From positions 1 through 47,310 of the IMG/VR virus record IMGVR_UViG_2529292906_000014: a stretch of 47,310 nt of DNA; one strand, 5' to 3'. Source of the stretch: a virus. Taxonomy: Duplodnaviria > Heunggongvirae > Uroviricota > Caudoviricetes. The notes beneath the pieces are model-generated. The model was given only the letters and a program-made list of their open reading frames with translations, made no database searches and was not told the DNA's origin. The position numbers were made by a program, and so were the translations under genes. Positions 6,100 through 25,286 of the stretch are shown piece after piece (within the stretch, counting starts at the first letter, position 1; the number at the start of each line of letters is the position of its first letter).

Positions 6100-6111
6100 C
6101 ATAAATATTGA

Positions 6112-7077: not shown

Positions 7078-7108
7078 CAGAACACCTTCAATTTTTAACC
7101 ACAGAACG

Positions 7109-7672: not shown

Positions 7673-8007
7673 ACAGTTTAACAACACACTACCGTCGCTC
7701 GCAACTGATTGCGCTTCCTGTACCGGGTGGAAAAGCGAAGGTGGAGTATTGCTATGCAGTAAATGTACCAGGTGACAGGGAAATTGTAACCCACAGCTTT
7801 GCAGAGTGGGCTGTGGGTGATTTCAACCGGCAGAAGGAGACAGTCCTTTGCGACAAGTTAACCGCTGGTTCAAAGATCACTACGGAGTGCCCGTCAGAGT
7901 CATTCGTTGGGAGCCGGAAACACAACGGGTTATCTACCTCCGCGAAGGCTATGAGCATGAGTGCTTCAGCCCGCTCGAACAGTTTCGTCGTAAATTCAGG
8001 GAAGTAG
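7669..8007 (+). CDS. hypothetical protein; frame uncertain in the 3' half
   Basis: 112-aa ORF; a second frame over 7821-8027 reads more protein-like ([54 protein letters not shown]). Confidence 0.3.
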
Positions 8008-8016
8008 AGGTCGGTC

Positions 8017-8958: not shown

Positions 8959-8960
8959 TC

Positions 8961-9449
8961 ATGAGTCTTTTGAATGACGTTCAGAAATTCATTGAAGCCC
9001 ATCCGGGCTGTACTTCCGGAGACATTGCGGATGCTTTTGCAGGTTACTCACGGCAGCGCGTTCTGCAGTCAGCAAGCAAGTTACGTCAGAGTGGGCGTGT
9101 GGCTCACCGTTGTGAAGGAGATACACACAGACATTTCCCGCGCCTGACTGAGAGAGCGCAGGATCCGGAACCACAACCAGTTCGTGAAACCAGACCTGTG
9201 CGCAATTTCTATGTCGGCACTAACGACCCGCGGGTGATTTTGTGCCTGACCCGCCAGGCGGAAGAACTGGAGTCCAGGGGCTTATACCGTCGTGCTGCAA
9301 CGGTGTGGATGGCGGCATTCCGTGAAAGCCACTCCCAGCCAGAACGAAACAATTTTCTGGCGCGTCGTGAACGGTGTTTACGGAAAAGCAGTAAGCGGGC
9401 TGCATCAGGTGAAGAGTGGTATCTCTCAGGGAATTACGTGGGGGCTTAA
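8961..9449 (+). CDS. putative transcriptional regulator, PerC-like C-terminal region (tentative)
   Basis: ATG at 8961 after a GGGGG tract; motif AEELESRGLYRRAATVWMAAF resembles PerC-family proteins. Confidence 0.45.
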   Translation: MSLLNDVQKFIEAHPGCTSGDIADAFAGYSRQRVLQSASKLRQSGRVAHRCEGDTHRHFPRLTERAQDPEPQPVRETRPVRNFYVGTNDPRVILCLTRQAEELESRGLYRRAATVWMAAFRESHSQPERNNFLARRERCLRKSSKRAASGEEWYLSGNYVGA

Positions 9450-10102
9450 TGAGTAATAAATATTGCCAGGCGCTGGCGGAACTGCGGAACAAACCAGCCC
9501 ATGAACTGAAGGAAGTGGGCGATCAGTGGCGCACGCCGGACAACATTTTCTGGGGAATTAACACTCTGTTTGGCCCGTTTGTTCTGGATCTGTTTACTGA
9601 CGGTGATAACGCCAAATGTGCTGCGTATTACACGGCGGAAGACAACGCGCTGGCGCATGACTGGTCAGAACGCCTTGCGGAGCTTAAAGGTGCTGCCTTT
9701 GGTAATCCCCCATACAGCCGCGCCAGTCAGCATGAGGGGCAATACATCACCGGCATGCGTTACATCATGAAGCATGCCAGTGCCATGCGTGATAAAGGCG
9801 GGCGCTATGTTTTCCTGATCAAAGCTGCCACCAGCGAAGTGTGGTGGCCGGAAGATGCAGATCATATTGCTTTTATTCGCGGGCGTATTGGTTTTGAACT
9901 GCCTGCCTGGTTTATCCCGAAGGATGAGAAGCAGGTGCCGACAGGCGCTTTCTTCGCTGGTGCTATTGCTGTTTTCGACAAGACCTGGAAGGGACCGGCA
10001 ATCAGCTACATCGGGCGCTATGAACTTGAGGCATGTGGTGAGGCCTTTCTGGCGCAGGTTCGCCAGCAGGCAGAAAAACTGGTCAGGGAGATGGCGGCAT
10101 GA
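9449..10102 (+). CDS. phage DNA N6-adenine methyltransferase (Dam-like)
   Basis: Start overlaps the upstream stop (TAATG); catalytic NPPY motif (FGNPPYSRA). Confidence 0.85.
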   Translation: MSNKYCQALAELRNKPAHELKEVGDQWRTPDNIFWGINTLFGPFVLDLFTDGDNAKCAAYYTAEDNALAHDWSERLAELKGAAFGNPPYSRASQHEGQYITGMRYIMKHASAMRDKGGRYVFLIKAATSEVWWPEDADHIAFIRGRIGFELPAWFIPKDEKQVPTGAFFAGAIAVFDKTWKGPAISYIGRYELEACGEAFLAQVRQQAEKLVREMAA

Positions 10103-10425
10103 CGACGTTAACTCAATGCCAGCAGCAGGTGCTGGATATGCTGATTTCTTATCAGAAAGAACGTGGCTTCCCGCCAACCAATCAGGAGGTGGCAACCATG
10201 CTGGGATACCGTTCAGTGAATGCAGCGGTGGAGCATCTTCGCGCACTGGAGAAAAAAGGCGTCATCACGATAAAGCGTGGCGTGGCCCGGGGCATCACGC
10301 TTCATACCGCGGTGAAGGACGACGACAGCGAGGCGGTCGGGATTATCCGCGCACTGCTTGCCGGTGAGGAAAACGCCAGGCTGCGTGCAGCCCACTGGTT
10401 ACATGAGAGGGGCCTGAAAGTATGA
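10099..10425 (+). CDS. LexA N-terminal DNA-binding domain protein
   Basis: 108 aa resembling the LexA winged-HTH domain (QQQVLDMLISYQKERGFPPTNQEVATMLGYRSVNAAVEHLRALEKKGVI) without the peptidase domain. Confidence 0.8.
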   Translation: MTTLTQCQQQVLDMLISYQKERGFPPTNQEVATMLGYRSVNAAVEHLRALEKKGVITIKRGVARGITLHTAVKDDDSEAVGIIRALLAGEENARLRAAHWLHERGLKV

Positions 10426-10811
10426 AGCTGATCTTGCCTTTCCCGCCCAGCGTGAACACGTACTGGCGACACCCCAACAAAGGGGCGTTTGCAGGTAAAA
10501 GCCTGATAAGCGAGGCGGGGCGAAAATTCCAGAGCGCGGCGTGCGCAGCAATAGTTGAGCAGTTACGTCGTCTGCCGAAACCAACGTCGGCACCTGCTTC
10601 AGTGGAGATCGTGTTGTTTCCTCCAGATAACCGGATCCGCGATCTGGACAACTATAACAAGGCGCTGTTTGACGCCCTGACCCACGCGGGTGTGTGGGAA
10701 GACGACAGCCAAGTGAAAAGAATGTTGGTGGAGTGGGGACCGGTTATCCCGGAAGGGAAGGTCGAGATCACTATCAGTAAGTACGAGAAACCGGCGGGTG
10801 CAGCCGCCTGA
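10422..10811 (+). CDS. rusA: Holliday junction resolvase RusA
   Basis: 129 aa; RusA-type sequence MKLILPFPPSVNTYW...DLDNYNKALFDAL; ATGA overlap with the upstream gene. Confidence 0.9.
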   Translation: MKLILPFPPSVNTYWRHPNKGAFAGKSLISEAGRKFQSAACAAIVEQLRRLPKPTSAPASVEIVLFPPDNRIRDLDNYNKALFDALTHAGVWEDDSQVKRMLVEWGPVIPEGKVEITISKYEKPAGAAA

Positions 10812-10830
10812 TTAAGAGGAGAAACGAAGT

Positions 10831-11628
10831 ATGAATAATCTGATGGTCATTGATGGTATTGAAGTTCGTCGTGATGCTTATGGGCGTTACAGCCTGAACG
10901 ATCTGCACAGGGCTGCCGGTTCTCTGGATAAGCATAAGCCTGCATTCTGGCTCCGCAATGAGCAAACTGAACGTTTAATAAGCGAGTTGCAGATTTGCAA
11001 CTCGGTCAATATAGAGCCAGTTAACGTTATTCGTGGCGGAAATAACCAGGGGACGTATGTCTGCAAAGAACTGGTGTATGCCTATGCAATGTGGATCAGC
11101 CCGTCATTCCATCTGAAGGTGATCCGTACTTTCGACATGGTAACCAGCGCACCGGAAAAATTATCCGGACAGGCTGCTGACAAGATACAGGCTGGTGTGA
11201 TTCTGCTGGACTTTATGCGCAGGGAGTTAAACCTGTCTAACTCTTCAGTGCTTGGGGCCTGTCAGAAACTCCAGGAGGCTGTTGGCTTACCGAATCTGGC
11301 ACCGCGCTATGCCATTGATGCTCCTGCTGACGCGCCTGATGGCTCAAGTCGCCCTACGCTGTCGCTGAGTGCACTGCTGAAACAGTATGGTATCCGCCTT
11401 ACGGCTAATCAGGCATATCACCAGATGGCGAAGCTGGGGATCGTTGAACAACGCGAACGATACAGCCGTACCTCGATTAACAACATCAAAAAATTCTGGT
11501 CGCTGACAGCGAAAGGCTGCATGTTCGGCAAGAACATCACCAGTCCCGCAAATCCGCGCGAGACGCAGCCGCATTTCTTCGAATCCCGATTCCCTGAGCT
11601 GTTAAAGCTGCTCGATACCGTTCATTGA
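10831..11628 (+). CDS. KilA-N domain protein (antirepressor-like)
   Basis: N-terminal KilA-N-like region (YSLNDLHRAAG...KPAFWLRNEQTERLISEL...YAMWISPSFHLKVIRTFD). Confidence 0.75.
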   Translation: MNNLMVIDGIEVRRDAYGRYSLNDLHRAAGSLDKHKPAFWLRNEQTERLISELQICNSVNIEPVNVIRGGNNQGTYVCKELVYAYAMWISPSFHLKVIRTFDMVTSAPEKLSGQAADKIQAGVILLDFMRRELNLSNSSVLGACQKLQEAVGLPNLAPRYAIDAPADAPDGSSRPTLSLSALLKQYGIRLTANQAYHQMAKLGIVEQRERYSRTSINNIKKFWSLTAKGCMFGKNITSPANPRETQPHFFESRFPELLKLLDTVH

Positions 11629-11629
11629 G

Positions 11630-12625
11630 GTGACCGTGAGAGCACTACTGACCCCTGAAATTGCCCCGCGTATGGGGATCGTATTGTTCAGACCAGGTTC
11701 AGAGCTGATGCCCCTGTTTATGCAGGGGCGTGTCCTGCTGGAGCCTGAGCCGGAACGTTATTCATCTTTCGCCAGTGGTGCCGTTCCGGCGGCATCACAA
11801 CCGCTGGCGGATGATCCTGCCGTACGGGCCGTGTTCCGCAATGAGGCAGTGATCCGTCGTGCTGGTGGCGTGGAATGTCTTGAAAGCTGGTTACTTCGTG
11901 AAAAAGGCTGCCAGTGGCCTCATTCCGACTGGCACAGCGAGAACATGACAACAATGCGACACGCGCCGGGCGCAATCCGTCTGTGCTGGCACTGCGATAA
12001 CCAGCTGCGCGATCAGTTCACGGAACGGCTGGAATCAATGGCAACGGATAACTGTGCCCGCTGGGTGTTGTCTGTTGTGCGTCGGGATCTCGGTTTTGAT
12101 GACAGTCACGTTGTGACAATGCCGGAACTGTGCTGGTGGCTGATTCGTAATGACCTGGCGGATGCCTTACCGGAAAGTGCAGCCCGTAAGGCACTGAGAT
12201 TACCGAAGCCTGTTGTGCCGTCTGTCACCCGGGAAAGTGACCTTGTGCCTTCGGTTCCTGCCACCAGCATCATCCAGGATAAGGCGAAAAAGGTGCTGGC
12301 GCTGAAAGTGGATCCGGAGTCGCCGGAGTCTTTTATGTTACGCCCAAAACGTCGCCGCTGGGTTAATGAAAAGTACACGCGCTGGGTTAAGACACAGCCG
12401 TGTGCATGTTGTGGAAAGCCCGCTGATGATCCCCACCACCTGATAGGTTACGGTCAGGGTGGAATGGGAACAAAAGCGCATGACCTTTTTGTGTTGCCTT
12501 TGTGCAGAAAGCATCACGACGAGCTGCATGCGGATACCGTGGCATTTGAAGAAAAGTATGGCTCCCAGCTGGAGCTGATATTTCGTTTTATCGATCGCGC
12601 GCTGGCAATTGGCGTGCTGGCCTGA
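11630..12625 (+). CDS. DUF968 family protein with C-terminal Cys/His-rich nuclease-like motif
   Basis: GTG start; C-terminal CACCGKPADDPHHLIGYGQGGMGTKAHDLFVLPLCRKHHDELH. Confidence 0.7.
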   Translation: MTVRALLTPEIAPRMGIVLFRPGSELMPLFMQGRVLLEPEPERYSSFASGAVPAASQPLADDPAVRAVFRNEAVIRRAGGVECLESWLLREKGCQWPHSDWHSENMTTMRHAPGAIRLCWHCDNQLRDQFTERLESMATDNCARWVLSVVRRDLGFDDSHVVTMPELCWWLIRNDLADALPESAARKALRLPKPVVPSVTRESDLVPSVPATSIIQDKAKKVLALKVDPESPESFMLRPKRRRWVNEKYTRWVKTQPCACCGKPADDPHHLIGYGQGGMGTKAHDLFVLPLCRKHHDELHADTVAFEEKYGSQLELIFRFIDRALAIGVLA

Positions 12626-12640
12626 TTTTTTCGGAGAAAG

Positions 12641-13006
12641 GTGATGCGTGATATTCAGATGGTTCTGGATCGTTGGGGAGCATGGGCGGCGAGTGATAGT
12701 TCAGGAGTAGATTATTCTCCTATAGCTGCTGGGTTTAAAGGGCTTCTTCCCTATACAAGCAAAACACGTCAGGCTTGTTCAGATAGTGATGCATTAATTA
12801 TTGAAGGTTGTCTTGCACGTCTAAAGCAAAAAAGACCTGATGAGCATTCGCTTCTTGTGGCACATTATTTATACAGAATATCCAAGCGTAAGATTGCAAA
12901 GGCGCGTGGAAAGGATGAGAAACTAATACGCATTGAGATACAGATGGCTGAGGGGTTTATTGATGGATGCCTTTCAATTCTGGATGTTAAACTTGAAATG
13001 GATTAG
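12641..13006 (+). CDS. Q: late gene antiterminator Q
   Basis: 121 aa, MMRDIQMVLDRWGAWAA...IAAGFKGLL...AEGFIDGCLSILDVKLEMD typical of the small Q family; directly upstream of the late region. Confidence 0.85.
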   Translation: MMRDIQMVLDRWGAWAASDSSGVDYSPIAAGFKGLLPYTSKTRQACSDSDALIIEGCLARLKQKRPDEHSLLVAHYLYRISKRKIAKARGKDEKLIRIEIQMAEGFIDGCLSILDVKLEMD

Positions 13007-13012
13007 TGAAAC

Positions 13013-13030
13013 CCCGGCTTAAGCCGGGGA
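13013..13030. terminator. 18-bp GC-rich perfect palindrome between convergent Q and NYN genes
   Basis: CCCCGGCTTAAGCCGGGG; contains the NYN stop codon; weak flanking T-runs. Confidence 0.4.
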
Positions 13031-13894
13031 TGTTTCAGATTGAAGTGTTTTTTTCTTGGGCTCGTTCTTAGATGATTTTGTTTTCTTTTGACGATTGAGT
13101 TTTTTCTCTTTGCGTCTGTCAATATAATCGTCCCACCAATCAGGTTTTACTGTTGGGACGATTCTGCAAATATCAGCAATTGCAACAACAATGTTGCTCG
13201 ATTGCACTCCATCGACGTGCTCTGCCAGTGAGGGAGGAACTTGTTGGTTCATTGGATCGAGGATAAAATCCACACCCTTTATACGGGCATGTTTAGCGGC
13301 AGGAACGAAATCAGCATCGCCAGCAATCAGGACGATCACATCAACTAGTTTCTCATGAGCAAGGATAGTTATATCCATACCAAGCTTAATATCGACGGCT
13401 TTTTGTTTATATTCGTAGTAGAAATCGTCGTTAGTTAACTCAGACCATTGAATTTCATTACGTAATAGTTTCTTAAGAGTATGTTCTTTTATTTGCCAGT
13501 TACCGACGTTTGAAAGAATACCCATACGAAGTGCCGTTTTACGATTCTTCCTTAGCTCCTCATGAAGCTTGTTTCGTAAAACATTCGGAGCATGTGTCTT
13601 GAAGTTTTTAGTTGATGGGGTTTTGTTGTCTCCATCAGGCAAAGGATACTTAATCTGTTTATCAAGCGGCGGGCAGTCGTAATAGTAAATACGGTAAAGC
13701 TCAAGTGGTTCACGGTCAGCGTGAGCACCATGTGGAACCTCTACATGAAATTTAACAATTCGCCAGATTATTTTAACAAGTTGTTGGCTGTCTAACTCAT
13801 GCCCAGGGAAATGTTTTCGTAGAAAGTAATCAATCCGACGGATGAAGTAGCCGCCGTCAATCAAGACTGCTGTTTTCTTCATTGAAAAACTCAC
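13019..13894 (-). CDS. NYN-domain (PIN-like) putative ribonuclease
   Basis: 291 aa; NYN hallmarks KKTAVLIDGGYF and VIVLIAGDADFVPAAKHARIKGVDFIL; Lys-rich C-terminal tail; antisense to the surrounding late operon. Confidence 0.8.
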   Translation of the reverse strand: MSFSMKKTAVLIDGGYFIRRIDYFLRKHFPGHELDSQQLVKIIWRIVKFHVEVPHGAHADREPLELYRIYYYDCPPLDKQIKYPLPDGDNKTPSTKNFKTHAPNVLRNKLHEELRKNRKTALRMGILSNVGNWQIKEHTLKKLLRNEIQWSELTNDDFYYEYKQKAVDIKLGMDITILAHEKLVDVIVLIAGDADFVPAAKHARIKGVDFILDPMNQQVPPSLAEHVDGVQSSNIVVAIADICRIVPTVKPDWWDDYIDRRKEKKLNRQKKTKSSKNEPKKKTLQSETSPA

Positions 13895-13971
13895 AAAAAA
13901 AGCTCAGAACCGTTGAGTAGACCCTAAATATTATCTACGAACAGTGCTGAGCTGGTGACGCAATAATTAAC

Positions 13972-14063
13972 TATTGACATTTGCGTTGTCAACAAATTTT
14001 GCACTGTTTAAATGTAAATTTTTTCTGCTGTCAACATATAGTGTCATCTTTGGCATGTTGACA
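13972..14063. promoter_or_regulatory. cluster of TGTCAACA/TGTTGACA motifs in the NYN-late operon divergent region (candidate operator and late promoter region)
   Basis: TTGACA at 13974, TGTCAACA at 13987 and 14029, inverted copy TGTTGACA at 14056. Confidence 0.35.
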
Positions 14064-14135
14064 CTATATAAACGCTTACGCGGTCCGCAAAAATAATTGT
14101 ATCATGTTAAGAGTGGTTACTTCGACTCCTTCCTT

Positions 14136-14161
14136 AAAACCGCAGTTGAGCGGTTTTTTTG
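14136..14161 (+). terminator. intrinsic terminator, candidate tR' of the late operon
   Basis: Hairpin AAACCGC-agttga-GCGGTTT followed by T7. Confidence 0.6.
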
Positions 14162-14258
14162 TACCTGTAAACCTGGTGCAGTACAGTAAACACGCTGGTG
14201 GTCGTGAATACTGGCTTTTTATCTTGCTGGCTTTTTAGACAAGAGTTATTGGTATGTC

Positions 14259-14486
14259 ATGTTAACCAGAAGGGAAAAAGACATGCTAAAACAGCAAGAT
14301 ATGACAGAAACCGCCGCCGTAGTCCTTCATTTCCTACCTGCTGACAAGTGGGTAACGCCACGCATGATGACGAGAACTACCGGAGTAAGCGAAGCCCGGT
14401 GCCAGTTAATACTGACTCAGTTAGTTCTGGCGGGTCTGGCGAAGGATAACGGCGGGTACGGGAATAAATTCAGACGCTGCCAGTAA
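14259..14486 (+). CDS. small hypothetical protein (75 aa; alternative start at 14283)
   Basis: ORF between tR' and the methyltransferase; AAGGGA precedes the internal ATG at 14283. Confidence 0.4.
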   Translation: MLTRREKDMLKQQDMTETAAVVLHFLPADKWVTPRMMTRTTGVSEARCQLILTQLVLAGLAKDNGGYGNKFRRCQ

Positions 14487-14636
14487 TGGCGGTTTCCTGC
14501 TGTGAAAATGGGCGGCTGGTGGGTGTTGGTAGCACCTGCCAGCCATTCGCTCATGCTTACTGGTCACAAGCGAACCACGGCCCACTGCTTTAGCGCAAAA
14601 GCAGAGTGAGCCTACCAGAGTTACGCTTACTGATCC

Positions 14637-15689
14637 ATGAAAAATACTGTAAAAATAAACAGTGTTGATTTAATCAACGCTGATTGCCTGCATTTTATTC
14701 AGTCCCTGCCTGATGATTCCATTGACCTGATTGTTACCGATCCGCCGTACTTCAAGGTGAAACCCAACGGCTGGGACAATCAGTGGAAAGGGGACGAAGA
14801 TTACCTTAAGTGGCTGGACCACTGTCTGGCCCAGTTCTGGCGGGTGTTAAAACCTGCCGGAAGCCTTTACCTGTTCTGTGGGCATCGCCTGGCATCTGAT
14901 ATTGAGATCATGATGCGTGAACGTTTCAACGTGCTTAACCATATCATCTGGGCGAAGCCGTCCGGACGTTGGAATGGGTGTAATAAAGAAAGTCTGCGCG
15001 CATATTTTCCTGCCACAGAGCGCGTTCTGTTTGCTGAACATTACCAGGGGCCATATCGCGGCAAAAGTGACGGCTATGCGGCAAAAGAAAGGGAACTCAA
15101 ACAGCACATAATGGCACCGCTGATATCGTATTTCAGGGATGCTCGTGCCGAACTGGGTATAACGGCAAAACAAATTGCCGAAGCCACAGGTAAGAAAAAT
15201 ATGGTTTCCCACTGGTTTGGTGCCAGTCAGTGGCAGTTGCCGAATGAGGCTGACTATCGGAAGTTACAGGCACTGTTTTCCCGTATAGCGGCAGAGAAGT
15301 TTCAGGAACAACAACTGGAACAACCACACCACCAGCTGGTGGCATCTTATGATTCACTGAATCGCAAATATTCTGAATTGCTGGATGAGTTTAAATCTCT
15401 CCGGCGCTATTTCTCCGTATCAGTCTCCGTGCCTTATACCGATGTCTGGACGCATAAGCCCGTTCAGTTCTACCCGGGTAAACATCCGTGCGAGAAACCG
15501 GCGGATATGCTCCGGCAAATAATCAATGCCAGTAGTCGACCTGGTGATCTGGTTGCTGATTTTTTTATGGGCTCCGGTTCCACAATAAAAGCAGCAATGG
15601 CGTTGGGGCGTCGGGCCTTAGGTGTTGAGCTTGAGTCAGAGCGGTTTAACCAGACAGTGAAAGAGATAAACGAGCTGGTGGGGAAATAA
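14637..15689 (+). CDS. DNA methyltransferase, beta-class N6A/N4C (motif IV before motif I)
   Basis: 350 aa; N-terminal DPPY (LIVTDPPYF), C-terminal AdoMet motif [13 protein letters not shown]; first long gene of the late operon. Confidence 0.85.
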
Positions 15690-15756
15690 TCTGGTGGCCA
15701 CGTCAGGTGGCCTTTTTATTTCCATTACACAGCACCCGCATCTGCGAGGTGGGGTT

Positions 15757-15849
15757 ATGAAATCCATGGATAAGTTAACAACGGGTGTCGCCTATGGCTC
15801 CTCAGCAGGTAGTGCCGGGTACTGGTTTTTACAGTTGCTCGATAAAGTC
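15757..15849 (+). pseudogene. S: pinholin S (phage 21 S-type), 5' fragment interrupted by IS
   Basis: [31 protein letters not shown] with the dual-start MKSMDK motif; reading frame runs into the IS terminal repeat at 15851. Confidence 0.8.
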
Positions 15850-15892
15850 ATGAACCGCCCCGGGTTTCCTGGAGAGTGTTTTATCTGTGAAC

Positions 15893-16783
15893 TCAGGCTG
15901 CCAGATCATCGTTTCCGATGGAAGCATAATAAGCTTTTTCTGCTTCTGCCGGAGGAGTATGGCCCAGCCTTCCCAGCAATCGTCGATTGTTATACCAGTC
16001 CACCCACGTTAGTGTGGCCAGTTCCACTTCTGCACGGTTTTTCCAGCTCTTACGGTGTATTACCTCCGCTTTGTAAAGACCATTGATGCTCTCAGCCATC
16101 GCGTTGTCATACGAGTCGCCTGTACTCCCTGTTGATGCCAGTAATCCGGCTTCTTTTAGTCGCTCCGTATAGGCCAGTGACACATACTGAGAGCCTTTAT
16201 CGCTGTGATGGATGGTGCCAGACGGACGACGGGCCCACAACGCCTGCTCCAGCGCATCCAGCACGAATGTCGTTTCCATAGACGATGAGACCCGCCACCC
16301 CACGATGTATCCGGCAAACACATCAATGATAAACGCCACATAGACGAAGCCCTGCCATGTGCTGACGTAAGTAAAATCAGCCACCCACAGCTGGTCAGGA
16401 CGTTCTGCCACGAACTGACGGTTTACGCGGTCACCTGTGGCAACGGTTTTCCGGCTGACGGTAGTGCGGACCTTTTTACCCCGGAGAACACCGGCAAGTC
16501 CCATAACCGCCATGAGGCGCGCCACTGTACATCTGGCCACCCTGATTCCTTCCCGTAACAACTGACGCCAGACTTTACGCACACCGTACACCTGATGATT
16601 TTCATCGTATACGCGCTGTATCTCTCTCTTCAGCCAGTCGTCGTGCTGCGCACGGGCACTGCGTTTATCCGGATGATGTCGCTGTTGCTGACAATGGTAA
16701 TACGTTGACGGGGCAATATGCAGTTCGCTGCATACCGGTCCGACCCCGTACTGCTCACGCAGCTTATCCAGCAGTGGCATCAT
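15893..16783 (-). CDS. IS3-family transposase OrfB (DDE integrase domain)
   Basis: 296 aa with DDE-type catalytic region (WVADFTYV...[10 protein letters not shown]...HSDKGSQY...DNAMAES); overlaps orfA at a run of A's. Confidence 0.85.
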
Positions 16784-17106
16784 TTTTTCCAGAGGCGGTC
16801 GAACTCCGCCTTCGCAAAATAAGCGGAAGCCTGGCGAAGGATATCGTTACTGCGGCGCAGTTCACGATTTTCACGTTCCAGCTCTTTCAGACGCTGACGT
16901 TCAGCGGTGGTGAGCCCACCATCACCGCCCCCGGTATCCCGCTCATGCTGGCGAACCCAGACACGCAGAGTCTCCGGCGTACAGCCAATCTTTGGGGCAA
17001 TGGAACAAATTGCCGCCCACTGTGAGTCATATTCATCCTGACTTTCCAGAACCATACGAATCGCCCGCTGACGGACTTCGGGGGAAAAACGAGTATTTTT
17101 AGTCAT
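16780..17106 (-). CDS. IS3-family transposase OrfA (HTH)
   Basis: 108 aa [22 protein letters not shown]... with leucine-zipper-like C-terminus; I recognise this as IS629-type OrfA. Confidence 0.85.
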
Positions 17107-17162
17107 CCTGTTTACCTCTTTCTCAGGGAGTTTAGTCTCCAGGATTTCCGGGGCGGTTCATC

Positions 17163-17285
17163 ACGCCCTCACAGTGGGCGGCATTAGGTGTGCTGGGTAG
17201 TCTGGTATTTGGCTTGCTGACGTATCTGACAAACCTTTATTTCAAGATTAAAGAAGACAAGCGTAAGGCGGCACGGGGAGAGTAA
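17163..17285 (+). pseudogene. S: pinholin S, 3' fragment
   Basis: Removing the IS and one TCA copy restores ...[44 protein letters not shown], a complete phage 21 S-type holin. Confidence 0.8.
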
Positions 17286-17289
17286 TTCA

Positions 17290-17640
17290 ATGACTCAAAA
17301 CTATGAACTGATTGTGAAAGGGATCCGCAATTTTGAGAATAAAGTTACGGTAACTTTAGCGTTACGGGACAAAAAACGCTTTGCCGGTGAAATTTTTGAC
17401 CTGGACATCTCGCTGGACCGTGTTGAAGGTGCCGTGCTGGAGTTTTATGAGGCAGCAGCCAGAAGGAGCATCAGACAGGTCTTCCTGGATGTTGCTGCCG
17501 GGTTATGTGAAGGGGATGAGCAGTCGCCGGAAAAGCGCCCCGTAATTTTAGAGGCGCAGAATGTATGGATAACCTACAAAGGAAAGCTACCGGGAAGAAT
17601 TACTGGTTCTCTGAAGACTCCTCCGGAATCACAACCTTAA
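17290..17640 (+). CDS. hypothetical protein between holin and endolysin
   Basis: 116-aa ORF starting 5 nt after the holin stop. Confidence 0.55.
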   Translation: MTQNYELIVKGIRNFENKVTVTLALRDKKRFAGEIFDLDISLDRVEGAVLEFYEAAARRSIRQVFLDVAAGLCEGDEQSPEKRPVILEAQNVWITYKGKLPGRITGSLKTPPESQP

Positions 17641-17703
17641 GTCACTGACCGGAACAGATAAACCTGTCCGTGGGCAGAAACCGATAAATCCTGATAAATA
17701 TCC

Positions 17704-18237
17704 ATGAACGCAAAAATCAGATACGGCCTGTCGGCTGCCGTTCTGGCACTGATTGCCGTCGGTGCGCCCGCGCCTGATATTCTCGACCAGTTTCTGGATG
17801 AAAAAGAAGGTAACCACACAACGGCATACCGCGATGGGTCCGGCATCTGGACCATCTGTCGGGGTGCCACGATGGTGGATGGAAAACCCGTTTTTCCCGG
17901 TATGAAACTGTCGAAGGAAAAATGCGACCAGGTCAACGCCATTGAGCGTGATAAGGCGCTGACATGGGTGGAGCGCAATATTAAAGTACCACTGACTGAA
18001 CCACAGAAAGCGGGTATCGCCTCATTTTGTCCCTATAACATTGGCCCAGGTAAGTGTTTTCCGTCGACATTTTATAAGCGGCTGAATGCTGGTGATCGAA
18101 AAGGCGCCTGCGAGGCGATTCGCTGGTGGATTAAGGATGGTGGCAGAGACTGCCGTATTCGTTCCAATAGCTGCTTTGGGCAAGTTTCGCGTCGGGACCA
18201 AGAAAGTGTGCTGGCGTGCTGGGGGATAGACCAGTGA
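17704..18237 (+). CDS. R: SAR endolysin (phage lysozyme, GH24)
   Basis: N-terminal Gly/Ala-rich weakly hydrophobic segment ([16 protein letters not shown]) then lysozyme E-x8-D-x5-T triad ([16 protein letters not shown]); pairs with a pinholin. Confidence 0.85.
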
Positions 18238-18242
18238 ATAAC

Positions 18243-18755
18243 ATGTTTGCTAATGCTTGGTTGAAAGTTGCCACGGTTTCGGCTCTCCTCATTGCCTCAT
18301 TTGTTGCAGGGAGTGTGTGGACGGAACGAGCATGGGAAAAGAAATGGGCGGATCGTAATAGTGAAGAATCCTCTCAGGCTGTGAACGCTCAGATAGCTGC
18401 TCGTATGATTGAACAAGGGCGAGTGATCGCTCGTGATGAGGCTGTTAAAAATGCACAAGAACAGGCTGCAAAAGCGGCTGCGAATGTTGCTGGCCTGTCT
18501 GCCACTGTTAACCAGCTGCGCACCGAAGCAACAAAACTTACCGTCCGCTTGGACGCTGCAAAGCACACCTCAGGTCTTGCCGTTGCCGTCGGAAGCAAAA
18601 CAACCGCCACCAACGCCGCGATGCTTGCCGACATGCTCGGAAGTATTGCAGAAGAAGCTAGATACTATGCTGGGCGAGCTGATGAAAGTTACTTGGCTGG
18701 AATGACATGTGAACACATTTACGGCTCAGTGAGGGACTCAAGTAGTGTTAAATAG
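18243..18755 (+). CDS. Rz: i-spanin Rz
   Basis: N-terminal transmembrane helix ([18 protein letters not shown]) and coiled-coil periplasmic domain; ATG shortly after the endolysin stop. Confidence 0.7.
18433..18705 (+). CDS. Rz1: o-spanin Rz1 (embedded in Rz in another frame; start uncertain, 18451 or 18484 possible)
   Basis: Lipoprotein signal with lipobox LLTSC followed by a proline-rich sequence, entirely inside Rz. Confidence 0.55.
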
Positions 18756-18943
18756 CTGGTATGATGATGTTGAGAAGGCGGCACAGCAGGAGCTGTAATC
18801 GACGAGTGCTAATCTAGCACAATTGAGTTCACAAATTGTCTACTTTTGCTATATTGCAACCGATGCCAACAGCCTTTTTTGAGCAAAAATCATAAATGCT
18901 ATCGTGTTGGCAGTTTTTTTCTTTGACGACACGGAATGATTTT

Positions 18944-19366
18944 ATGTCAGAAGTAGCTGTTGAACTTGAAGAGGATTCTTGGCCTGACTTTTTCCCGGTT
19001 GGAGTACCGCCGAAATCAGCCGTCCCTGCTGAGGGCGAGTTTTTCCGTTTGGTAAGGTCTAATCCACCAACCCCTGCATGTTTCCTCTCTACACATGAAG
19101 AGTATCCGCAGCGGCACAAAAAGTATCGTGGGGAAGCACTTCAGTGTGTCTATGGAACATCATTCTTTTCAGAATCGCGCGGGGCTACGGATGCAAAAGC
19201 TAAATTTCCTGCAGCTCTTGGTCATCGACTCGTTGCTAGTGGTCAGGTCACCCCCGTTTTCGGAGTAATGAAAAAAACATTTGCCGATCCAGCGCACTAC
19301 ACAATTTGGCTTAAGCGTAATTGTGCTATTCATGAACATTTTCACTGTATAGGAGAAGGCGTATGA
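18944..19366 (+). CDS. hypothetical protein (141 aa), first gene of an uncharacterized two-gene cassette
   Basis: ATG at 18944 (MSEVAVELEEDSWPDFF); His/Cys-rich C-terminus (CAIHEHFHCIGEGV); stop overlaps the next start. Confidence 0.55.
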   Translation: MSEVAVELEEDSWPDFFPVGVPPKSAVPAEGEFFRLVRSNPPTPACFLSTHEEYPQRHKKYRGEALQCVYGTSFFSESRGATDAKAKFPAALGHRLVASGQVTPVFGVMKKTFADPAHYTIWLKRNCAIHEHFHCIGEGV

Positions 19367-20655
19367 GTAACGTTTTTCTACCTAATACAATGATGGGCAC
19401 TCTATGTTACAAAAGAGTTTATGAGTTCTTCGAAGAGCCTCGCTTCTTTTCAGTTGAAAATGAAGTTAGTACACTTTTTATCGTTTACTGGATTGGTGAG
19501 GATGATGAATGTGATAGTTGGTTTATCATACCAATTTCTCCAGGGCGATTAGAGTTGATTGAAAGAAAAAGAATATGTATCCGTGATGCTTTGATTAATC
19601 AGGAGCAAAACTTTTTCTATGAAGCCCATATACCATACGATCGTACAGGCAAAGTGACTTGGCTGAGTAAAAACTTGGTTGATATATTTGAAATACCTTT
19701 GCCTGTTTCTGAACTATATATAAGTTCGGTAGTTCCAGTAATGCCAAATGGTAAACTAGGCGAGGCTATTACTTACTCAACTCATGAGATCCATTTAGAA
19801 AAAAGCTCAAAGAAAAGTGCAAAAAATTTGGTTTTAAGTCATGTGTCAAACGTATGCGACAGATTCAGCGATCTTTATGACAGAATGCTGGAGATGGCAA
19901 AGTGCAAAGATAAATTACGTCCTGTCGATGCGCGGCCTGGTTCCTTTATCATTTCTTTTAAAGCTGAGAAATTACATTCCTTTGAAGACACTTTTAAAGA
20001 ATTAAGCAGGCTGATAGAACTTAGAGCTGATATTATTCCTTTTGTTTTCGAAAAGGGTATTGATGTTCCAGCTTTGACAGATCTCTTACAATCCATAGTT
20101 GAAACCGGAACGAATATGGAACTCAAAAGCAACCAGACAGGTGAATTAGCTTTTGTTATTACAAAAGCTGGTGCTGAGTTCTATTTAAAAAAATTATCAC
20201 GTCTTTCTACCTCATTGGTTGGAGGGCATCAAATACCTCAAGCAGATGTCCTCGAGACAGTTTATAAATTAGTGGAAATTGTTTGGAGTGGCGAACCACT
20301 TACTCCTATTAATACTGGTTTGCAAGATAGACATATCTACTATTATAAGCATGCAGCTAAAGTTTTGGGATTACTTGATAGCTTTGGTAATGTCACAACG
20401 TCTGGTCAACAACTCGTACAAAGTGATGAGATGACTAGACATAAAATTGCAGCGAGAAAATTTGAAGTGAGTCATGTGGGATGGGCTTGGATAAATTGGG
20501 CCAGTGTTGAACATTTATCCCAAATTGATCCTGACAGCGCTTTAGACTTCCTATTGGAGCAATGCCACTCTTTAAGTCGTGATACTATTGAACGACGTGC
20601 TACAACTATTAAACACTGGTGCCGTGAATTGAAAAATTATTATACACCTCTGTAA
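19363..20655 (+). CDS. hypothetical protein (430 aa), AT-rich, no recognisable domain
   Basis: Long uninterrupted ORF, roughly 35% GC over its 5' end versus about 50% in flanking phage genes; hairpin plus T6 terminator right after the stop. Confidence 0.7.
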   Translation: MSNVFLPNTMMGTLCYKRVYEFFEEPRFFSVENEVSTLFIVYWIGEDDECDSWFIIPISPGRLELIERKRICIRDALINQEQNFFYEAHIPYDRTGKVTWLSKNLVDIFEIPLPVSELYISSVVPVMPNGKLGEAITYSTHEIHLEKSSKKSAKNLVLSHVSNVCDRFSDLYDRMLEMAKCKDKLRPVDARPGSFIISFKAEKLHSFEDTFKELSRLIELRADIIPFVFEKGIDVPALTDLLQSIVETGTNMELKSNQTGELAFVITKAGAEFYLKKLSRLSTSLVGGHQIPQADVLETVYKLVEIVWSGEPLTPINTGLQDRHIYYYKHAAKVLGLLDSFGNVTTSGQQLVQSDEMTRHKIAARKFEVSHVGWAWINWASVEHLSQIDPDSALDFLLEQCHSLSRDTIERRATTIKHWCRELKNYYTPL

Positions 20656-20681
20656 AGGATAATTTTCGTAGTTAACAATGA

Positions 20682-20708
20682 ACCACTGACGTCTGTCGGT
20701 GGTTTTTT
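20682..20708 (+). terminator. intrinsic terminator after the two-gene cassette
   Basis: Hairpin CCACTGACG...TGTCGGTGG followed by T6. Confidence 0.6.
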
Positions 20709-20770
20709 AATAGATAATTTCCCACTTATCCACTTGATTTTTGATGGGTCCTCCAAGTGGGGGGCCTGCC

Positions 20771-20790
20771 ACGGGGCGGGAGCGTCGCGG
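20771..20790. other. cos site (cosN-like cohesive end site)
   Basis: ACGGGGCGGGAGCGTCGCGG matches lambda cosN ACGGGGCGGCGACCTCGCGG at 15 of 20 positions; followed by an AT-rich 11-bp-stem hairpin; 170 bp upstream of the small terminase gene. Confidence 0.6.
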
Positions 20791-20959
20791 AAAAAGGCTA
20801 GTTTTTGAAATTTCATTCGTCATCACCACCACTGTAATAGATTGATATTACAGTGGTTTTATTTTTATGGTGTCGATTTTGATTGTTTTTTGTTCATCAC
20901 TAACACCGTTTGCCTAAAGTTGTTCGCAAGATGCATGTTTAAAACATTCTGGAGCGGGT

Positions 20960-21454
20960 ATGGATCGAGAGTTAAAAAATCTGACGCTGAATATCAGTCA
21001 ACTGGCGGCACTGTCAGGTGTACATCGCCAGACTGCTGCGGCAAGGCTGCAAAATCTACCCGTTGCAGGGGGGCATGAAAGCAACCTCAAGCTTTATCGG
21101 GTGGTTGATATTGTGTCGGCATTTCTGGCATTGCCACCGCCGGTTGCAGAAGGCGAAATGGACGCGCATGAGCGCAAAGCCTGGTATCAGTCTGAACGTG
21201 AGCGTCTTAAGTTCGAACAGGAAACGGCACAACTCATTCCGGCCAGTGATGTCAGACGGGAGTTTGCCATCTGGGCAAAAGCGGTCGTGCAGGTGCTGGA
21301 GACATTACCGGATATTTTGGAACGTGACTGCGGTCTGCAGCCTGCCGCTGTGAGCCGTGTTCAGTCCATTATTGATGATCTGCGCGATCAGATAGCCCTG
21401 CGGGTGACTGAAGCAGGTGCGGATGATGAGGAGGAATTACAGCAGGAGGAGTAA
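20960..21454 (+). CDS. terminase small subunit (Nu1-like, HTH)
   Basis: 164 aa with N-terminal HTH (NISQLAALSGVHRQTAAARLQNL) and acidic C-terminus; stop overlaps the large subunit start. Confidence 0.8.
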   Translation: MDRELKNLTLNISQLAALSGVHRQTAAARLQNLPVAGGHESNLKLYRVVDIVSAFLALPPPVAEGEMDAHERKAWYQSERERLKFEQETAQLIPASDVRREFAIWAKAVVQVLETLPDILERDCGLQPAAVSRVQSIIDDLRDQIALRVTEAGADDEEELQQEE

Positions 21455-23556
21455 TGCTGAATCAGGAAACCGCAAAGGCAGCACGAACCGATTCAGGTTA
21501 TATCCTTCGCGCACCGAGACGAATGCGGGTTGCTGATGCCGTTGCTCAGTATATGCGGGTGCCCATGGGGGCAGGGAACTCAGTCCCGTGGGATCCGCTG
21601 GTGGCACCGTATGTTATTGAGCCGATGAACTGCCTGGCCTCGCGTGAATACGACGCAGTGATATTTGTTGGCCCGGCACGAACCGGCAAGACTATCGGCC
21701 TGATTGACGGCTGGGTGATTTACAACGTGATTTGCGATCCTGCTGATATGCTGATCATTCAGATGACGGAGGAAAAAGCCCGCGAACACTCCAAAAAACG
21801 ACTCGCCAGAACGTTTCGCGTCAGCCCGGAAGTGGTCAGTCGCCTGAGTCCGAACAAAAATGACAACAACGTTTATGACAGAACATTCCTTGCTGGTAAC
21901 TACCTGAAAATCGGCTGGCCGTCAGTCAATATCATGTCCTCATCAGATTATAAATGCGTCGCGCTGACGGATTATGACCGTTTTCCGGAAGATATTGATG
22001 GCGAGGGGGATGCTTTCTCTCTTGCCTCAAAACGTACCACCACATTTATGTCCAGCGGTATGACGCTGGTGGAGAGTTCCCCCGGCAGGGATGTGAAGGA
22101 TGTGAAATGGCGACGGACTTCACCGCATGAGGCTCCACCAACCACGGGGATCCTGTCGCTCTATAACCGTGGTGATCGCCGTCGCTGGTACTGGCCCTGT
22201 CCACACTGTGGTGAGTATTTTCAGCCCTGCGGCGATGTGGTTGCTGGTTTCCGTGATATTGCCGATCCCGTGCTGGCAAGTGAGGCGGCTTATATTCAGT
22301 GTCCTTCCTGTTCAGGACGGATTATGCCTGAACAAAAACGTGAGCTGAACGGACGTGGGGTCTGGTTGCGGGATGGTGAATCCATCAATGCGGATGGCAG
22401 TCGTTATGGTGATCCCCGACGCTCACGTATTGCGTCATTCTGGATGGAGGGTCCGGCAGCTGCTTACCAGACACTCTCGCAACTCGTTTACAAACTGCTT
22501 ACTGCAGAACAGGAATACGAGACAACCGGAAGTGAAGAAACACTCAAGACGGTTATCAATACCGACTGGGGATTACCTTATCTTCCCCGCGCCAGCATGG
22601 AGCAACGAAAAAGTGAACTGCTTGAGCAGCGGGCAGAGCCAGTTCCTTCCCGCAGTGTGCCGGATGGCGTTAATTTCCTTGTGGCGACAGTGGATGTGCA
22701 GGCGGGACGTCATCGCCGTTTTGTGGTTCAGGTAACGGGCTATGGCAGCCGTGGCGAACGCTGGATTATTGATCGTTACAACATCACGCAGTCATTGCGC
22801 GGTGACAGCGACGGGGAGAGCCAGCGAATTGATCCGGCCAGCTATCCGGAAGACTGGGATGTCCTGCTGACGGATGTTTTTCATAAAAGCTGGCCGCTGG
22901 CCTCCGATCCTTCTCAACAAATGCGACTGATGGCAATGGCGGTGGACTCCGGCGGTGAAGACGGGGTCACTGATAATGCCTATAAATTCTGGCGTCGTTG
23001 CCGTCGTGATGGCCTTGGTAAACGTATTTACCTGTTTAAGGGCGACAGCATCCGGCGCGCAAAACTGATCACCCGTACATTCCCTGATAACACCGGACGA
23101 ACGGGCCGACGGGCGCAGGCCGCAGGTGATGTGCCGCTCTGGCTTCTTCAGACGGATGCACTGAAAGACCGGGTGAATAACGCGTTATGGCGTGACTCGC
23201 CAGGTCCCGGCTATGTGCATTTCCCTGACTGGCTGGGGAGCTGGTTTTACGACGAACTGACGTATGAAGAGCGGAGCAGTGACGGGAAATGGAGTAAGCC
23301 GGGTCGCGGTGCCAACGAAGCTTTTGACCTGATGGTGTATGCCGAGGCTCTGGTCATTCTGCATGGATACGAAAAGATCCGCTGGCCGGATGCACCGGAG
23401 TGGGCGAGCCGGGAAACCTGGCTGGAGTGTGTCCAGGACAGTACCGAACCGTCATCCTCACCGGAACCGGTATCCACGCCTGTTAAAAAACAAAAACGGA
23501 AGAAAACAGTAACTGACGATGTTAACCCCTGGCTGACTTCCGGAGGATGGTTATGA
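21454..23556 (+). CDS. terminase large subunit (GpA-type)
   Basis: 700 aa; Walker A VIFVGPARTGKT; CxxC...CxxC zinc-binding motifs. Confidence 0.9.
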   Translation: MLNQETAKAARTDSGYILRAPRRMRVADAVAQYMRVPMGAGNSVPWDPLVAPYVIEPMNCLASREYDAVIFVGPARTGKTIGLIDGWVIYNVICDPADMLIIQMTEEKAREHSKKRLARTFRVSPEVVSRLSPNKNDNNVYDRTFLAGNYLKIGWPSVNIMSSSDYKCVALTDYDRFPEDIDGEGDAFSLASKRTTTFMSSGMTLVESSPGRDVKDVKWRRTSPHEAPPTTGILSLYNRGDRRRWYWPCPHCGEYFQPCGDVVAGFRDIADPVLASEAAYIQCPSCSGRIMPEQKRELNGRGVWLRDGESINADGSRYGDPRRSRIASFWMEGPAAAYQTLSQLVYKLLTAEQEYETTGSEETLKTVINTDWGLPYLPRASMEQRKSELLEQRAEPVPSRSVPDGVNFLVATVDVQAGRHRRFVVQVTGYGSRGERWIIDRYNITQSLRGDSDGESQRIDPASYPEDWDVLLTDVFHKSWPLASDPSQQMRLMAMAVDSGGEDGVTDNAYKFWRRCRRDGLGKRIYLFKGDSIRRAKLITRTFPDNTGRTGRRAQAAGDVPLWLLQTDALKDRVNNALWRDSPGPGYVHFPDWLGSWFYDELTYEERSSDGKWSKPGRGANEAFDLMVYAEALVILHGYEKIRWPDAPEWASRETWLECVQDSTEPSSSPEPVSTPVKKQKRKKTVTDDVNPWLTSGGWL

Positions 23557-23765
23557 ACCAGAATGATATCGAAGCCATGATTCAGCGTTATATGGAAGCT
23601 GAAATGGCGGTGCTGGACGGAAAATCCGTCACCTTTAATGGTCAGCAGATGACCATGGAAAACTTATCTGAGATCCGGCAGGGACGGCAGGAGTGGGAGC
23701 GCCGCCTTGCGGCTCTGATTACACGACGACGGGGGCATCCCGGGTACCGGCTGGCGAGGTTCTGA
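23553..23765 (+). CDS. W: head-tail joining protein, gpW-like
   Basis: About 70 aa; GGAGGA 8 nt upstream of the ATG at 23553; gene order terminase-W-portal. Confidence 0.7.
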   Translation: MNQNDIEAMIQRYMEAEMAVLDGKSVTFNGQQMTMENLSEIRQGRQEWERRLAALITRRRGHPGYRLARF

Positions 23766-25273
23766 TGGCAATTCTTGATGATGTGATTGGCGTTTTTTCA
23801 CCTGGATGGAAAGCGGCAAGGCTGCGTTCCCGTGCGGTGATCCAGGCTTATGAAGCCGTAAAAACGACGCGGACACACAAAGCCCGACGGGAGAACCGAA
23901 CTGCCGACCAGCTAAGCCAGTACGGGGCCGTGTCGTTACGTGAGCAGGCCCGTTACCTTGATAACAACCACGATCTGGTTATTGGTGTATTTGACAAGCT
24001 GGAAGAACGGGTGGTGGGGAAAAACGGGATTATTGTCGAGCCACATCCGGTATTACGCAATGGGGCCATTGCCCGTGATCTGGCAGCGGAGATTCGCACC
24101 CGATGGAGTGAATGGTCTGTCAGCCCGGAAGTCACCGGGCAGTTTACCCGTCCGATGCTGGAACGTCTGATGCTGCGTACCTGGCTGCGCGATGGTGAGG
24201 TGTTTGTCCAGATGGTTTCCGGGCGCATAAACAGCCTGACGCCTTCTGCCGGTGTTCATTTCTGGCTGGAGGCGCTCGAGCCAGACTTTATTCCCATGAC
24301 CAGTGATGAGAGCAACAGGCTGAATCAGGGCGTGTTTGTTGATGACTGGGGGCGTCCCGAAAAATATCTGGTGTATAAAAGCCGTCCCGTATCCGGACGG
24401 CAGATGGAAACCAAAGAAGTGGATGCAGAGCGAATGCTGCATCTTAAATTTGTTCGCCGTCTGCACCAGATGCGCGGGACGTCTTTGTTGTCCGGTGTGC
24501 TGATCCGCCTCAGTGCCCTGAAAGATTATGAAGATTATGAGCTGACTGCAGCAAGGATCGCCGCTGCTCTGGGGATGTACATCCGCAAAGGCGACGGGCA
24601 GAGCTATGAACCGGATGGTAATGGCAGCAAGGATAAGGAACGCGAGCTTACCATTCAGCCAGGCATTATTTACGACGATCTGAAACCCGGCGAAGAAATC
24701 GGAATGGTGAAGTCGGATCGCCCCAATCCTAACCTTGAAACTTTTCGTAATGGTCAGTTGCGTGCCGTGGCGGCGGGCAGTCGTCTGAGTTTTTCCAGTA
24801 CAGCGCGCAACTATAACGGCACTTACAGCGCCCAGCGTCAGGAGCTGGTTGAATCTACTGATGGCTACCTGATCCTGCAGGACTGGTTTATTGGTGCCGT
24901 CACCCGCCCGATGTATCGTGCATGGCTGAAACAGGCTGTGGCATCCGGTGTTATCAGGCTACCCCGCGATCTTGACCGTTCTTCACTGTATACCGCGGTG
25001 TATTCCGGACCAGTGATGCCGTGGATTGACCCTGTTAAGGAGGCTGAGGCCTGGAAAATCCAGATTCGTGGTGGAGCGGCGACAGAATCAGACTGGGTAC
25101 GTGCAGGTGGTCGTAATCCGGATGATGTCAAACGTCGGCGCAAGGCCGAAATTGATGAAAACCGCAAGCTGGATCTGGTATTTGATACCGATCCGGCCAG
25201 TGATAAAGGAGGCAGCAGTGCCGCAACGAAACGACAGGAGCCGCAGCACACCGACGACCAGTCCGAAGAATAA
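23765..25273 (+). CDS. portal protein (lambda gpB family)
   Basis: 502 aa from MAILDDVIGVF; start overlaps the W stop (TGATG). Confidence 0.85.
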   Translation: MAILDDVIGVFSPGWKAARLRSRAVIQAYEAVKTTRTHKARRENRTADQLSQYGAVSLREQARYLDNNHDLVIGVFDKLEERVVGKNGIIVEPHPVLRNGAIARDLAAEIRTRWSEWSVSPEVTGQFTRPMLERLMLRTWLRDGEVFVQMVSGRINSLTPSAGVHFWLEALEPDFIPMTSDESNRLNQGVFVDDWGRPEKYLVYKSRPVSGRQMETKEVDAERMLHLKFVRRLHQMRGTSLLSGVLIRLSALKDYEDYELTAARIAAALGMYIRKGDGQSYEPDGNGSKDKERELTIQPGIIYDDLKPGEEIGMVKSDRPNPNLETFRNGQLRAVAAGSRLSFSSTARNYNGTYSAQRQELVESTDGYLILQDWFIGAVTRPMYRAWLKQAVASGVIRLPRDLDRSSLYTAVYSGPVMPWIDPVKEAEAWKIQIRGGAATESDWVRAGGRNPDDVKRRRKAEIDENRKLDLVFDTDPASDKGGSSAATKRQEPQHTDDQSEE

Positions 25274-25286
25274 TTCCTGGTTCAGG

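Follow-up and report, generated by a model that had tools for sequence, protein, structure and literature searches.

An insertion sequence, identified here as IS629, interrupts the pinholin gene of an E. coli prophage between two copies of a TCA triplet; the observation of an insertion with target duplication is confirmed in every structural detail. The reading we favour, with a probability of about 0.85, is that IS629 recently entered the loop-coding region of the pinholin gene, that the timer of lysis would be lost as a result, and that the endolysin would still be transcribed by read-through and bring about slow lysis. The DNA analysed, called the window below, comprises positions 1-47,310 of the virus record IMGVR_UViG_2529292906_000014. 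It holds a lambdoid prophage beside proA and tRNA-Thr(CGT), the proA-thrW integration site of E. coli, in which an integrase and a CPS-53-like early region are followed by Q, a methylase, the lysis cassette, a terminase, an HK97-like head and a lambda-like tail. Further along, the window shows no att repeat of the tRNA-Thr 3' end, which places attR beyond the window. The features of the lysis region are collected in Table 1.

Table 1. Features of the interrupted lysis region, in window coordinates.
Feature	Position	Strand	Basis
Pinholin 5' fragment (essD/S21-type), codons 1-31 and base 1 of codon 32	15757-15850	+	tblastn, hydropathy
Left TCA target-site duplication	15848-15850		sequence; 3-bp overlap in empty-site relative
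IRR, 25-bp terminal inverted repeat, orfB end	15851-15875		repeat pairing, CP-1639 annotation
IS629 orfB, 296 aa, HTH_21 and rve DDE integrase core	15893-16783	-	domain search
ALIL pseudoknot RF01497	16709-16825	-	Rfam, 121.5 bits (gathering score 50)
IS629 orfA, 108 aa, HTH_Tnp_1	16780-17106	-	domain search; 1 aa different from CP-1639 IS629 OrfA
IRL, 25-bp terminal inverted repeat, orfA end	17136-17160		repeat pairing, CP-1639 annotation
Right TCA target-site duplication	17161-17163		sequence; 3-bp overlap in empty-site relative
Pinholin 3' fragment, codons 32-71 and stop	17163-17285	+	tblastn, hydropathy
YdfR/DUF1327 gene, between holin and endolysin, intact	17290-17640	+	domain/PHROG search; 99% protein identity to relative
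Endolysin (phage lysozyme), intact	17704-18237	+	PF00959; 100% protein identity to relative
Rz-type i-spanin (DUF2514), intact	18243-18755	+	domain/PHROG search; 100% protein identity to relative
Rz1-type o-spanin ORF, embedded, +1 frame, exact start uncertain	18433-18705	+	phrog_11621 Rz-like spanin, E = 2e-10

Identity of the inserted element

Sequence reading and blastn delimit the element as a complete copy of 1310 bp on the minus strand, at 15851-17160. Its left end reads TGAACCGCCCCGG... from 15851 (the same end is read as TGAACCGCCCCGGG in the segment 15400-17700), and its right end runs up to 17160 as ...CCGGGGCGGTTCA, the complement of the left-end sequence; the two ends have the form TG...CA. 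The 25-bp terminal inverted repeats are imperfect, with 13 of the 13 terminal bases paired and 22 of the first 25, and the 25-bp IS629 repeats annotated in phage CP-1639 (AJ304858) mark the same ends as the match in the window. [quoted passage not shown] Aligned to copies annotated as IS629 by their depositors in CP-1639 and several Stx2 phages, the element is 99.2% identical without a gap (1300 of 1310 positions, over 1310 of 1310), and the ends coincide; the name is based on these depositor-annotated copies, and membership is drawn at a nucleotide identity of at least 95%. Ten substitutions and no gaps separate it from the CP-1639 copy, amounting to one amino acid change in OrfA and three in OrfB. 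Over its full length it matches thousands of loci in E. coli, at identities of up to 99.9%. These comparisons go beyond the likeness first proposed and identify the element as IS629 itself.

Both transposase reading frames are uninterrupted and lie antisense to the phage late operon. OrfB matches the NCBIfam model NF033516 for IS3 family transposases (315.7 bits), and orfB would be entered from orfA through a -1 frameshift in the A-run GGAAAAAATGA where the two genes overlap. The ALIL pseudoknot recognised in the element is a frameshift-stimulating RNA element of IS3-family transposase mRNAs. The copy is complete and apparently able to transpose. In its length, ends, repeats, orfA/orfB frameshift and 3-bp duplication it is like the IS629 of Shigella sonnei and EHEC E. 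coli, from which it shows no structural difference, and its location in a prophage agrees with the report that 62% of the IS629 copies of O157 lie in prophages (PMC3271280). The same study gives target duplications of 3-4 bp for IS629, finds no sequence-specific target, and treats IS1203 and IS3411 as isoforms (PMC3271280).

The empty site in related prophages

The closest relative among complete genomes is E. coli O25:H16 F5505-C1, whose prophage occupies the same proA-thrW site. In a blastn comparison, window positions 14501-15850 and 17161-35374 fall on adjoining segments of this genome that share exactly 3 bp, as expected where 1310 bp have been inserted and 3 bp of target duplicated. A 988-bp query rebuilt without the IS and one TCA gave a single ungapped match in 188 complete E. 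coli genomes (best identity 99.3%), and the matched stretches are annotated there as DNA methyltransferase, EssD (RefSeq) and YdfR. The empty site is also present in viable phages, for example PhiR40_1 and mEp460. The imperfect terminal repeats and flanking TCA copies of the original prediction both held on re-inspection.

These comparisons bear on whether the IS reached the holin gene in an assembler instead of in a cell, as a multi-copy repeat misplaced in a draft contig. We hold this to be extremely improbable: the source assembly is a draft and the junction was found in no other record, but the element is exactly full length, its 3-bp duplication is perfect and the site is continuous in relatives, and misassembly would not create a target-site duplication.

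The interrupted pinholin gene

Excision of 15851-17163, that is, of the IS and one TCA, yields a holin of 71 aa, complete as had been claimed. Against PF04971 ("Bacteriophage P21 holin S") the restored protein scores 117.6 bits (cut-off 26) over profile positions 1-63 of 64, and it also hits the holin PHROGs phrog_9876 and phrog_20; among NCBIfam models none matched the holin, YdfR or the spanins. Its hydropathy profile has a weakly hydrophobic Gly/Ala/Ser-rich segment at residues ~7-28 (TMD1) and a strongly hydrophobic segment at ~35-58 in which G40, S44 and G48 form a glycine-zipper-like G-x3-S-x3-G motif, followed by a basic tail. Two such transmembrane domains, a dual start and a basic C-terminus mark the phage-21-type pinholins, and the motif has been described before (PMC9025707, PMC9636201). 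We assign the restored protein to the phage-21-type class II holins (PF04971, essD family).

The gene is split after codon 31, in the region coding for the loop between TMD1 and TMD2; tblastn with EssD of the relative bears out the predicted break point, aligning residues 1-31 at 15757-15849 and residues 31-71 at 17160-17282 in another frame. The weakly hydrophobic TMD1 lies in the 5' fragment, preceded by the dual-start motif M1-K2-S3-M4. From the ATG at 15757 the frame of this fragment continues into the antisense strand of the IS as far as a stop at 16084-16086, which gives a 109-aa fusion of TMD1 and 78 nonsense codons. The end of the loop, all of TMD2 (G40/S44/G48) and a charged C-terminus are left in the 3' fragment. 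Upstream of this fragment a TAG at 17133-17135 closes the frame, in which no start codon comes before a GTG at 17190; this GTG lacks a properly spaced Shine-Dalgarno, and the 31-aa remnant ORF beginning there drops G40 and the first third of TMD2. Since the 5' part codes for TMD1 and nonsense codons and the 3' part lacks a start codon that could be used, the reading frames show that neither fragment would yield a functional pinholin or antiholin from this locus, which we classify as a pseudogene of an essD/S21-type pinholin, broken by IS629.

Lysis could nonetheless be essentially unaffected if the whole TMD2, which lies downstream of the IS, were expressed as a fragment and formed pinholes, or if another prophage supplied a holin in trans. 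S21 without TMD1 is said to be still lethal, in work by Park et al. 2006, and in two other genomes (L007 and L023) PGAP has called holin ORFs whose starts fall within the IS end; here, however, the TAG and the poorly placed GTG described above argue against an expressed fragment with an intact TMD2. As to supply in trans, E. coli genomes carry this type of cassette at a median of 2 and a maximum of 11 copies, and another resident prophage could make up for the loss with its own holin, but only if it were induced at the same time. Taken in either form, we consider unaffected lysis very unlikely.

An alternative intact holin within the prophage, which the original prediction had named as a finding that would count against it, was found in the window by none of three approaches. 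A transmembrane-segment scan of all ORFs of 40-250 aa revealed no second holin, returning nothing but shadow ORFs and a few candidates in intergenic sequence; those candidates that were tested had no PHROG match; and the annotation of the closest relative lists EssD as the sole holin.

Downstream genes and transcription across the element

The endolysin and spanin genes are intact, in line with the original prediction, and the SAR nature of the endolysin is read from sequence features. The endolysin is homologous to the phage 21 lysozyme 3HDE (R21, E = 4e-16) and to RrrD (4ZPU), and its catalytic E-x8-D-x5-T motif pairs with EGVSYIPYKDIVGVWT in the alignment to 3HDE. One Gly/Ala-rich, weakly hydrophobic N-terminal segment at residues ~7-23 would be compatible with a SAR domain and suggests that the enzyme is SAR-type. 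In the Rz1-type ORF, ...LLTSC may be a lipobox, and the tail is rich in proline. The cassette is like S21-R21-Rz/Rz1 of phage 21 and essD-rrrD-rzpD of DLP12 in having a PF04971 holin followed by a lysozyme whose N-terminal segment looks SAR-type and by embedded spanins. It differs from them in that the holin is interrupted, a YdfR/DUF1327 gene stands between holin and endolysin, the endolysin is distant from R21 and RrrD (E ~1e-16) and the i-spanin is of the DUF2514 type.

A Q-family antiterminator is encoded upstream of the lysis cassette, at 12641-13006 (PHROG search), and a terminator-like hairpin at 15696-15712, between the methylase and the holin, suggests that the operon depends on antitermination in any case. 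Inside the IS, the sole terminator-like feature of the plus strand is a weak 5-bp hairpin with a T-run at 15860-15872. RNA polymerase modified by lambda Q resists intrinsic and Rho-dependent terminators alike. Because the IS holds no strong plus-strand terminator and Q-modified polymerase ignores terminators, the endolysin and spanins should still be made.

A fully polar insertion would instead silence the endolysin and spanins too and leave no lysis at all. Some 1.2 kb of antisense IS RNA, from the fusion stop at 16086 to ydfR at 17290, would go untranslated and could invite Rho-dependent termination, and the weak hairpin with its T-run points the same way; but the cassette lies downstream of the Q-family antiterminator, whose modified polymerase would be expected to pass such terminators, the IS carries no strong intrinsic terminator on this strand, and both ydfR and the endolysin gene possess a start codon of their own. 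We regard full polarity as rather unlikely.

How read-through compares with a promoter in the IS can be judged from the orientation of the element. In the IS3 family an outward -35 element sits in IRR, which is here the left end of the IS and is directed away from the lysis genes. Plus-strand sequence close to the right IS end was scanned for an outward promoter and contained no sigma-70-like site, and promoter-like sites in the region number 8, against 6.7 ± 2.8 in shuffled sequence, which is no excess. The proposal that the endolysin could be transcribed from outward-facing sequence of the IS is unsupported by these results, and Q-antiterminated read-through would be the simpler route to endolysin transcription.

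Expected effect on lysis

Pinholins form small (~2 nm) heptameric holes, which depolarise the membrane and do not release a cytoplasmic endolysin. Their collapse of the proton motive force leads to the release and activation of membrane-tethered SAR endolysins (PMC9636201), and SAR endolysins alone cause slow, gradual lysis (PMC9025707). We propose that IS629 transposed into the loop-coding region of the pinholin gene and duplicated its TCA target. On induction, Q-modified RNA polymerase starting from the Q-dependent late promoter would cross the IS, and production of YdfR, the SAR-type endolysin and the Rz/Rz1 spanins would continue. Lacking depolarisation by the pinholin, the endolysin would leave the membrane only by slow spontaneous escape, and lysis would be delayed and gradual instead of sharply timed.

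The likely phenotype is a loss of timed, abrupt lysis and not an absence of lysis. The claim that the prophage cannot lyse normally stands in so far as timed, abrupt lysis would be lost; it does not reach to lysis itself, which SAR endolysins can achieve slowly by themselves (PMC9025707). Precise excision of IS629 could in principle reverse the insertion. Such excision of IS629/IS1203v depends on the transposase, is strongly enhanced by IEE and repairs genes that the element had broken, stx2 and bla among them (bioRxiv 10.1101/2023.06.07.543989; PMC9330008).

Age of the insertion and a second lesion

The insertion is very recent in evolutionary terms, as near-identical prophages carry the empty site. 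A look-up of the KilA-N protein led to the source contig, AIFV01000004.1 of assembly GCA_000249595.2, which is 100% identical to window positions 2831-19628 (16.8 kb) and carries the IS, while in GCA_033847405.1 and GCA_002226865.1 flanks of 99.99-100% identity (0-1 mismatch over 16.8 kb) enclose an empty site. Eight records are listed with this very YdfR allele; five of them have an intact 71-aa holin, and the source contig is the only one with the IS.

A 2-kb filled-site query run against 5,426 complete E. coli genomes found the same junction in none; high-coverage matches to this query were rejected as the same insertion, their pieces being joined from other arrangements. An exact search of the GTDB species-representative genomes gave no match to the left junction, and a look-up of the 109-aa TMD1-IS fusion product gave no record. 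The metagenome ERZ28581646, a candidate second occurrence, was rejected: two of its contigs break in the holin at ~15795 and ~17203. These breaks are 55 and 42 bp away from the IS junctions and fit contig ends caused by repeats better than they fit this insertion. As far as the searched collections show, the insertion is private to one isolate.

The prophage carries a second lesion in its tape-measure gene, where a 1-nt deletion in the A-run 32246-32252 (A7 here, A8 in the closest relative) leaves two ORFs at 30422-32374 and 32287-33495. The truncated product is on record only in GCA_000249595.2 and in an independent assembly of the run SRR094143; the literature yielded no mention of the assembly and run accessions. 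Either the frameshift is genuine or the homopolymer was misread in sequencing. With a genuine frameshift, no tails would be built whatever the status of lysis, and the disruption of the holin would not be the sole obstacle to phage production. The prophage is probably defective, and it may already be non-productive, so that the lysis phenotype would matter little to the phage.

Recurrent insertions in P21-type holin genes

IS629-type insertions are found in P21-type holin genes of several other E. coli. In AHB12 the duplication is GGC, at codon ~21; a cluster of eight O157:H7-type genomes (the strain 4276 group) has GGT at codon ~23/24, with the element in the orientation opposite to that in the window; CFSAN027350 has GCT at codon ~27/28, and O157:H7 F6667 has an insertion at the same GCT triplet and codon, in the opposite orientation and of a different IS629 subtype; in an O145:H28 lineage the element lies at codon ~37/38, together with an upstream deletion. 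Other copies of the IS629/IS1203 type lie in ydfR or a short way before the start of the holin gene. These holin insertions share with the one studied here the IS family, the gene family and, where it could be read, the 3-bp duplication, all between codons ~21 and 38. They differ from it in position, duplication (TCA in the window), orientation and IS629 subtype, and none has the junction of the window.

A more far-reaching proposal is that the loop between TMD1 and TMD2 is a preferred landing zone for the IS629 family or a selected knock-out point, and that such insertions act as an IEE-reversible switch of lysis timing instead of marking decay. Its basis is at least six independent insertions between codons ~21 and 38, two of them at one GCT triplet in opposite orientations; the queries were anchored on the junction of the window, and the apparent clustering is subject to ascertainment bias. 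We think the proposal unlikely to be right. If it were, pinholin-null prophages would keep a working SAR endolysin and spanins, and precise excision by way of IEE would switch lysis timing back on.

What is unusual about the locus is mild, and consists of the repeated insertions in one short stretch and the near-isogenic prophages with an empty site.

Significance

IS629 insertions in the Sakai Sp prophages have reportedly been described by Ooka et al. and by Asadulghani et al. 2009. The present case is also like that of IS1203v in stx2 of E. coli O157:H7 (Kusumoto et al.), in which the same element family inactivates a prophage gene by simple insertion. The difference lies in the target, which is a timer of lysis here and a toxin or morphogenesis gene there. 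The event is one of ordinary prophage decay, a known IS in a known type of prophage gene. It has little significance beyond annotation, where the locus should be labelled as an IS629-interrupted pinholin pseudogene in a thrW lambdoid prophage. It does provide a natural pinholin-null allele beside an intact SAR-type endolysin, together with virtually isogenic empty-site prophages in other strains, and such a pair of alleles would allow holin-independent lysis and the excision of IS629 to be studied conveniently by natural comparison. The repeated IS629-type insertions within the same 50 bp of one gene family may give a modest hint of how such elements choose their targets or of selection that acts against lysis by prophages.

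Prophage mosaicism and candidate defence genes

Compared with L004, its closest relative among complete-genome prophages, the prophage has a replaced immunity region, comprising the repressor gene and its neighbours, and identity in the distal tail genes (J, Lom and tail fibre) reaches only 75-94%. Past the tail-fibre-assembly gene the cargo is different too: avs2 is absent from the window, which carries instead genes for a 205-aa phrog_19262 protein, a FlxA-like protein and a Bflower-domain protein. These differences are typical lambdoid mosaicism. Within the tail-fibre-assembly gene itself, the 3ˊ portion holds an Rfam match to a candidate sRNA, IS009.

Features of the window with their coordinates and database matches
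Feature	Position	Strand	Match or remark
Immunity region	5628-7093		replaced relative to L004
Repressor gene	6112-6786		within immunity region
NYN-domain protein, 291 aa	13019-13894	minus	weak PADLOC matches: HEC-09 and an NYN nuclease model
Insert, first gene (140/156-aa protein)	18896-19366		PADLOC PD-T4-10_A, E = 1.3e-5
Insert, second gene (430-aa DUF6575 protein)	19363-20655		PADLOC PD-T4-10_B, E = 2.8e-4
Tape-measure gene	30422-33495		split into two ORFs
A-run	32246-32252		1-base deletion
Tape-measure ORF 1	30422-32374
Tape-measure ORF 2	32287-33495
J, Lom, tail fibre	within 35374-47310		75-94% identity to L004
Tail-fibre-assembly gene	43416-44000
IS009 candidate sRNA	43759-43957	+	Rfam RF02111, 221.6 bits

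A two-gene insert lies between the spanin genes and the small terminase subunit gene; its matches to the two PD-T4-10 models are weak but concordant, and the gene order is correct. Judged by these sequence matches, the insert is a possible moron encoding a distant anti-phage defence pair. The gene for the NYN-domain protein sits on the opposite strand, with the Q antiterminator gene on one side and the late genes on the other; IS1B truncates its counterpart in the closest relative.

The tape-measure gene

An A-run in the tape-measure gene has seven A residues in the window versus eight in the closest relative, and this one-base deletion leaves two ORFs. Either the deletion is genuine, and a second lesion that inactivates the prophage, or it is a sequencing error in the homopolymer; an assembly of run SRR094143 made independently has the truncated product as well.

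Recurrent insertion into P21-type holin genes

Besides the window's own insertion at 15850/17161, at least five more independent IS629/IS1203 insertions, all at codons ~21-38 of P21-type holin genes, were found at loci in other E. coli genomes (L001, L007, L008, L023 and L024). At two of these loci (L007, 1945-2166; L023, 1645-1836), PGAP annotates a "class II holin family protein" ORF that starts within the IS end and continues into the 3ˊ part of the holin gene, indicating that IS insertion can give rise to N-terminally replaced holin chimeras. No such IS-end-to-holin ORF exists in the window because of an in-frame TAG at 17133-17135.

Two of the holin-gene insertions, by different IS629 subtypes, share one GCT triplet as their target and face opposite ways. 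The clustering of IS629/IS1203 in holin genes may mark a micro-hotspot or reflect selection that favours loss of the holin, but the search design was itself weighted towards this part of the gene.
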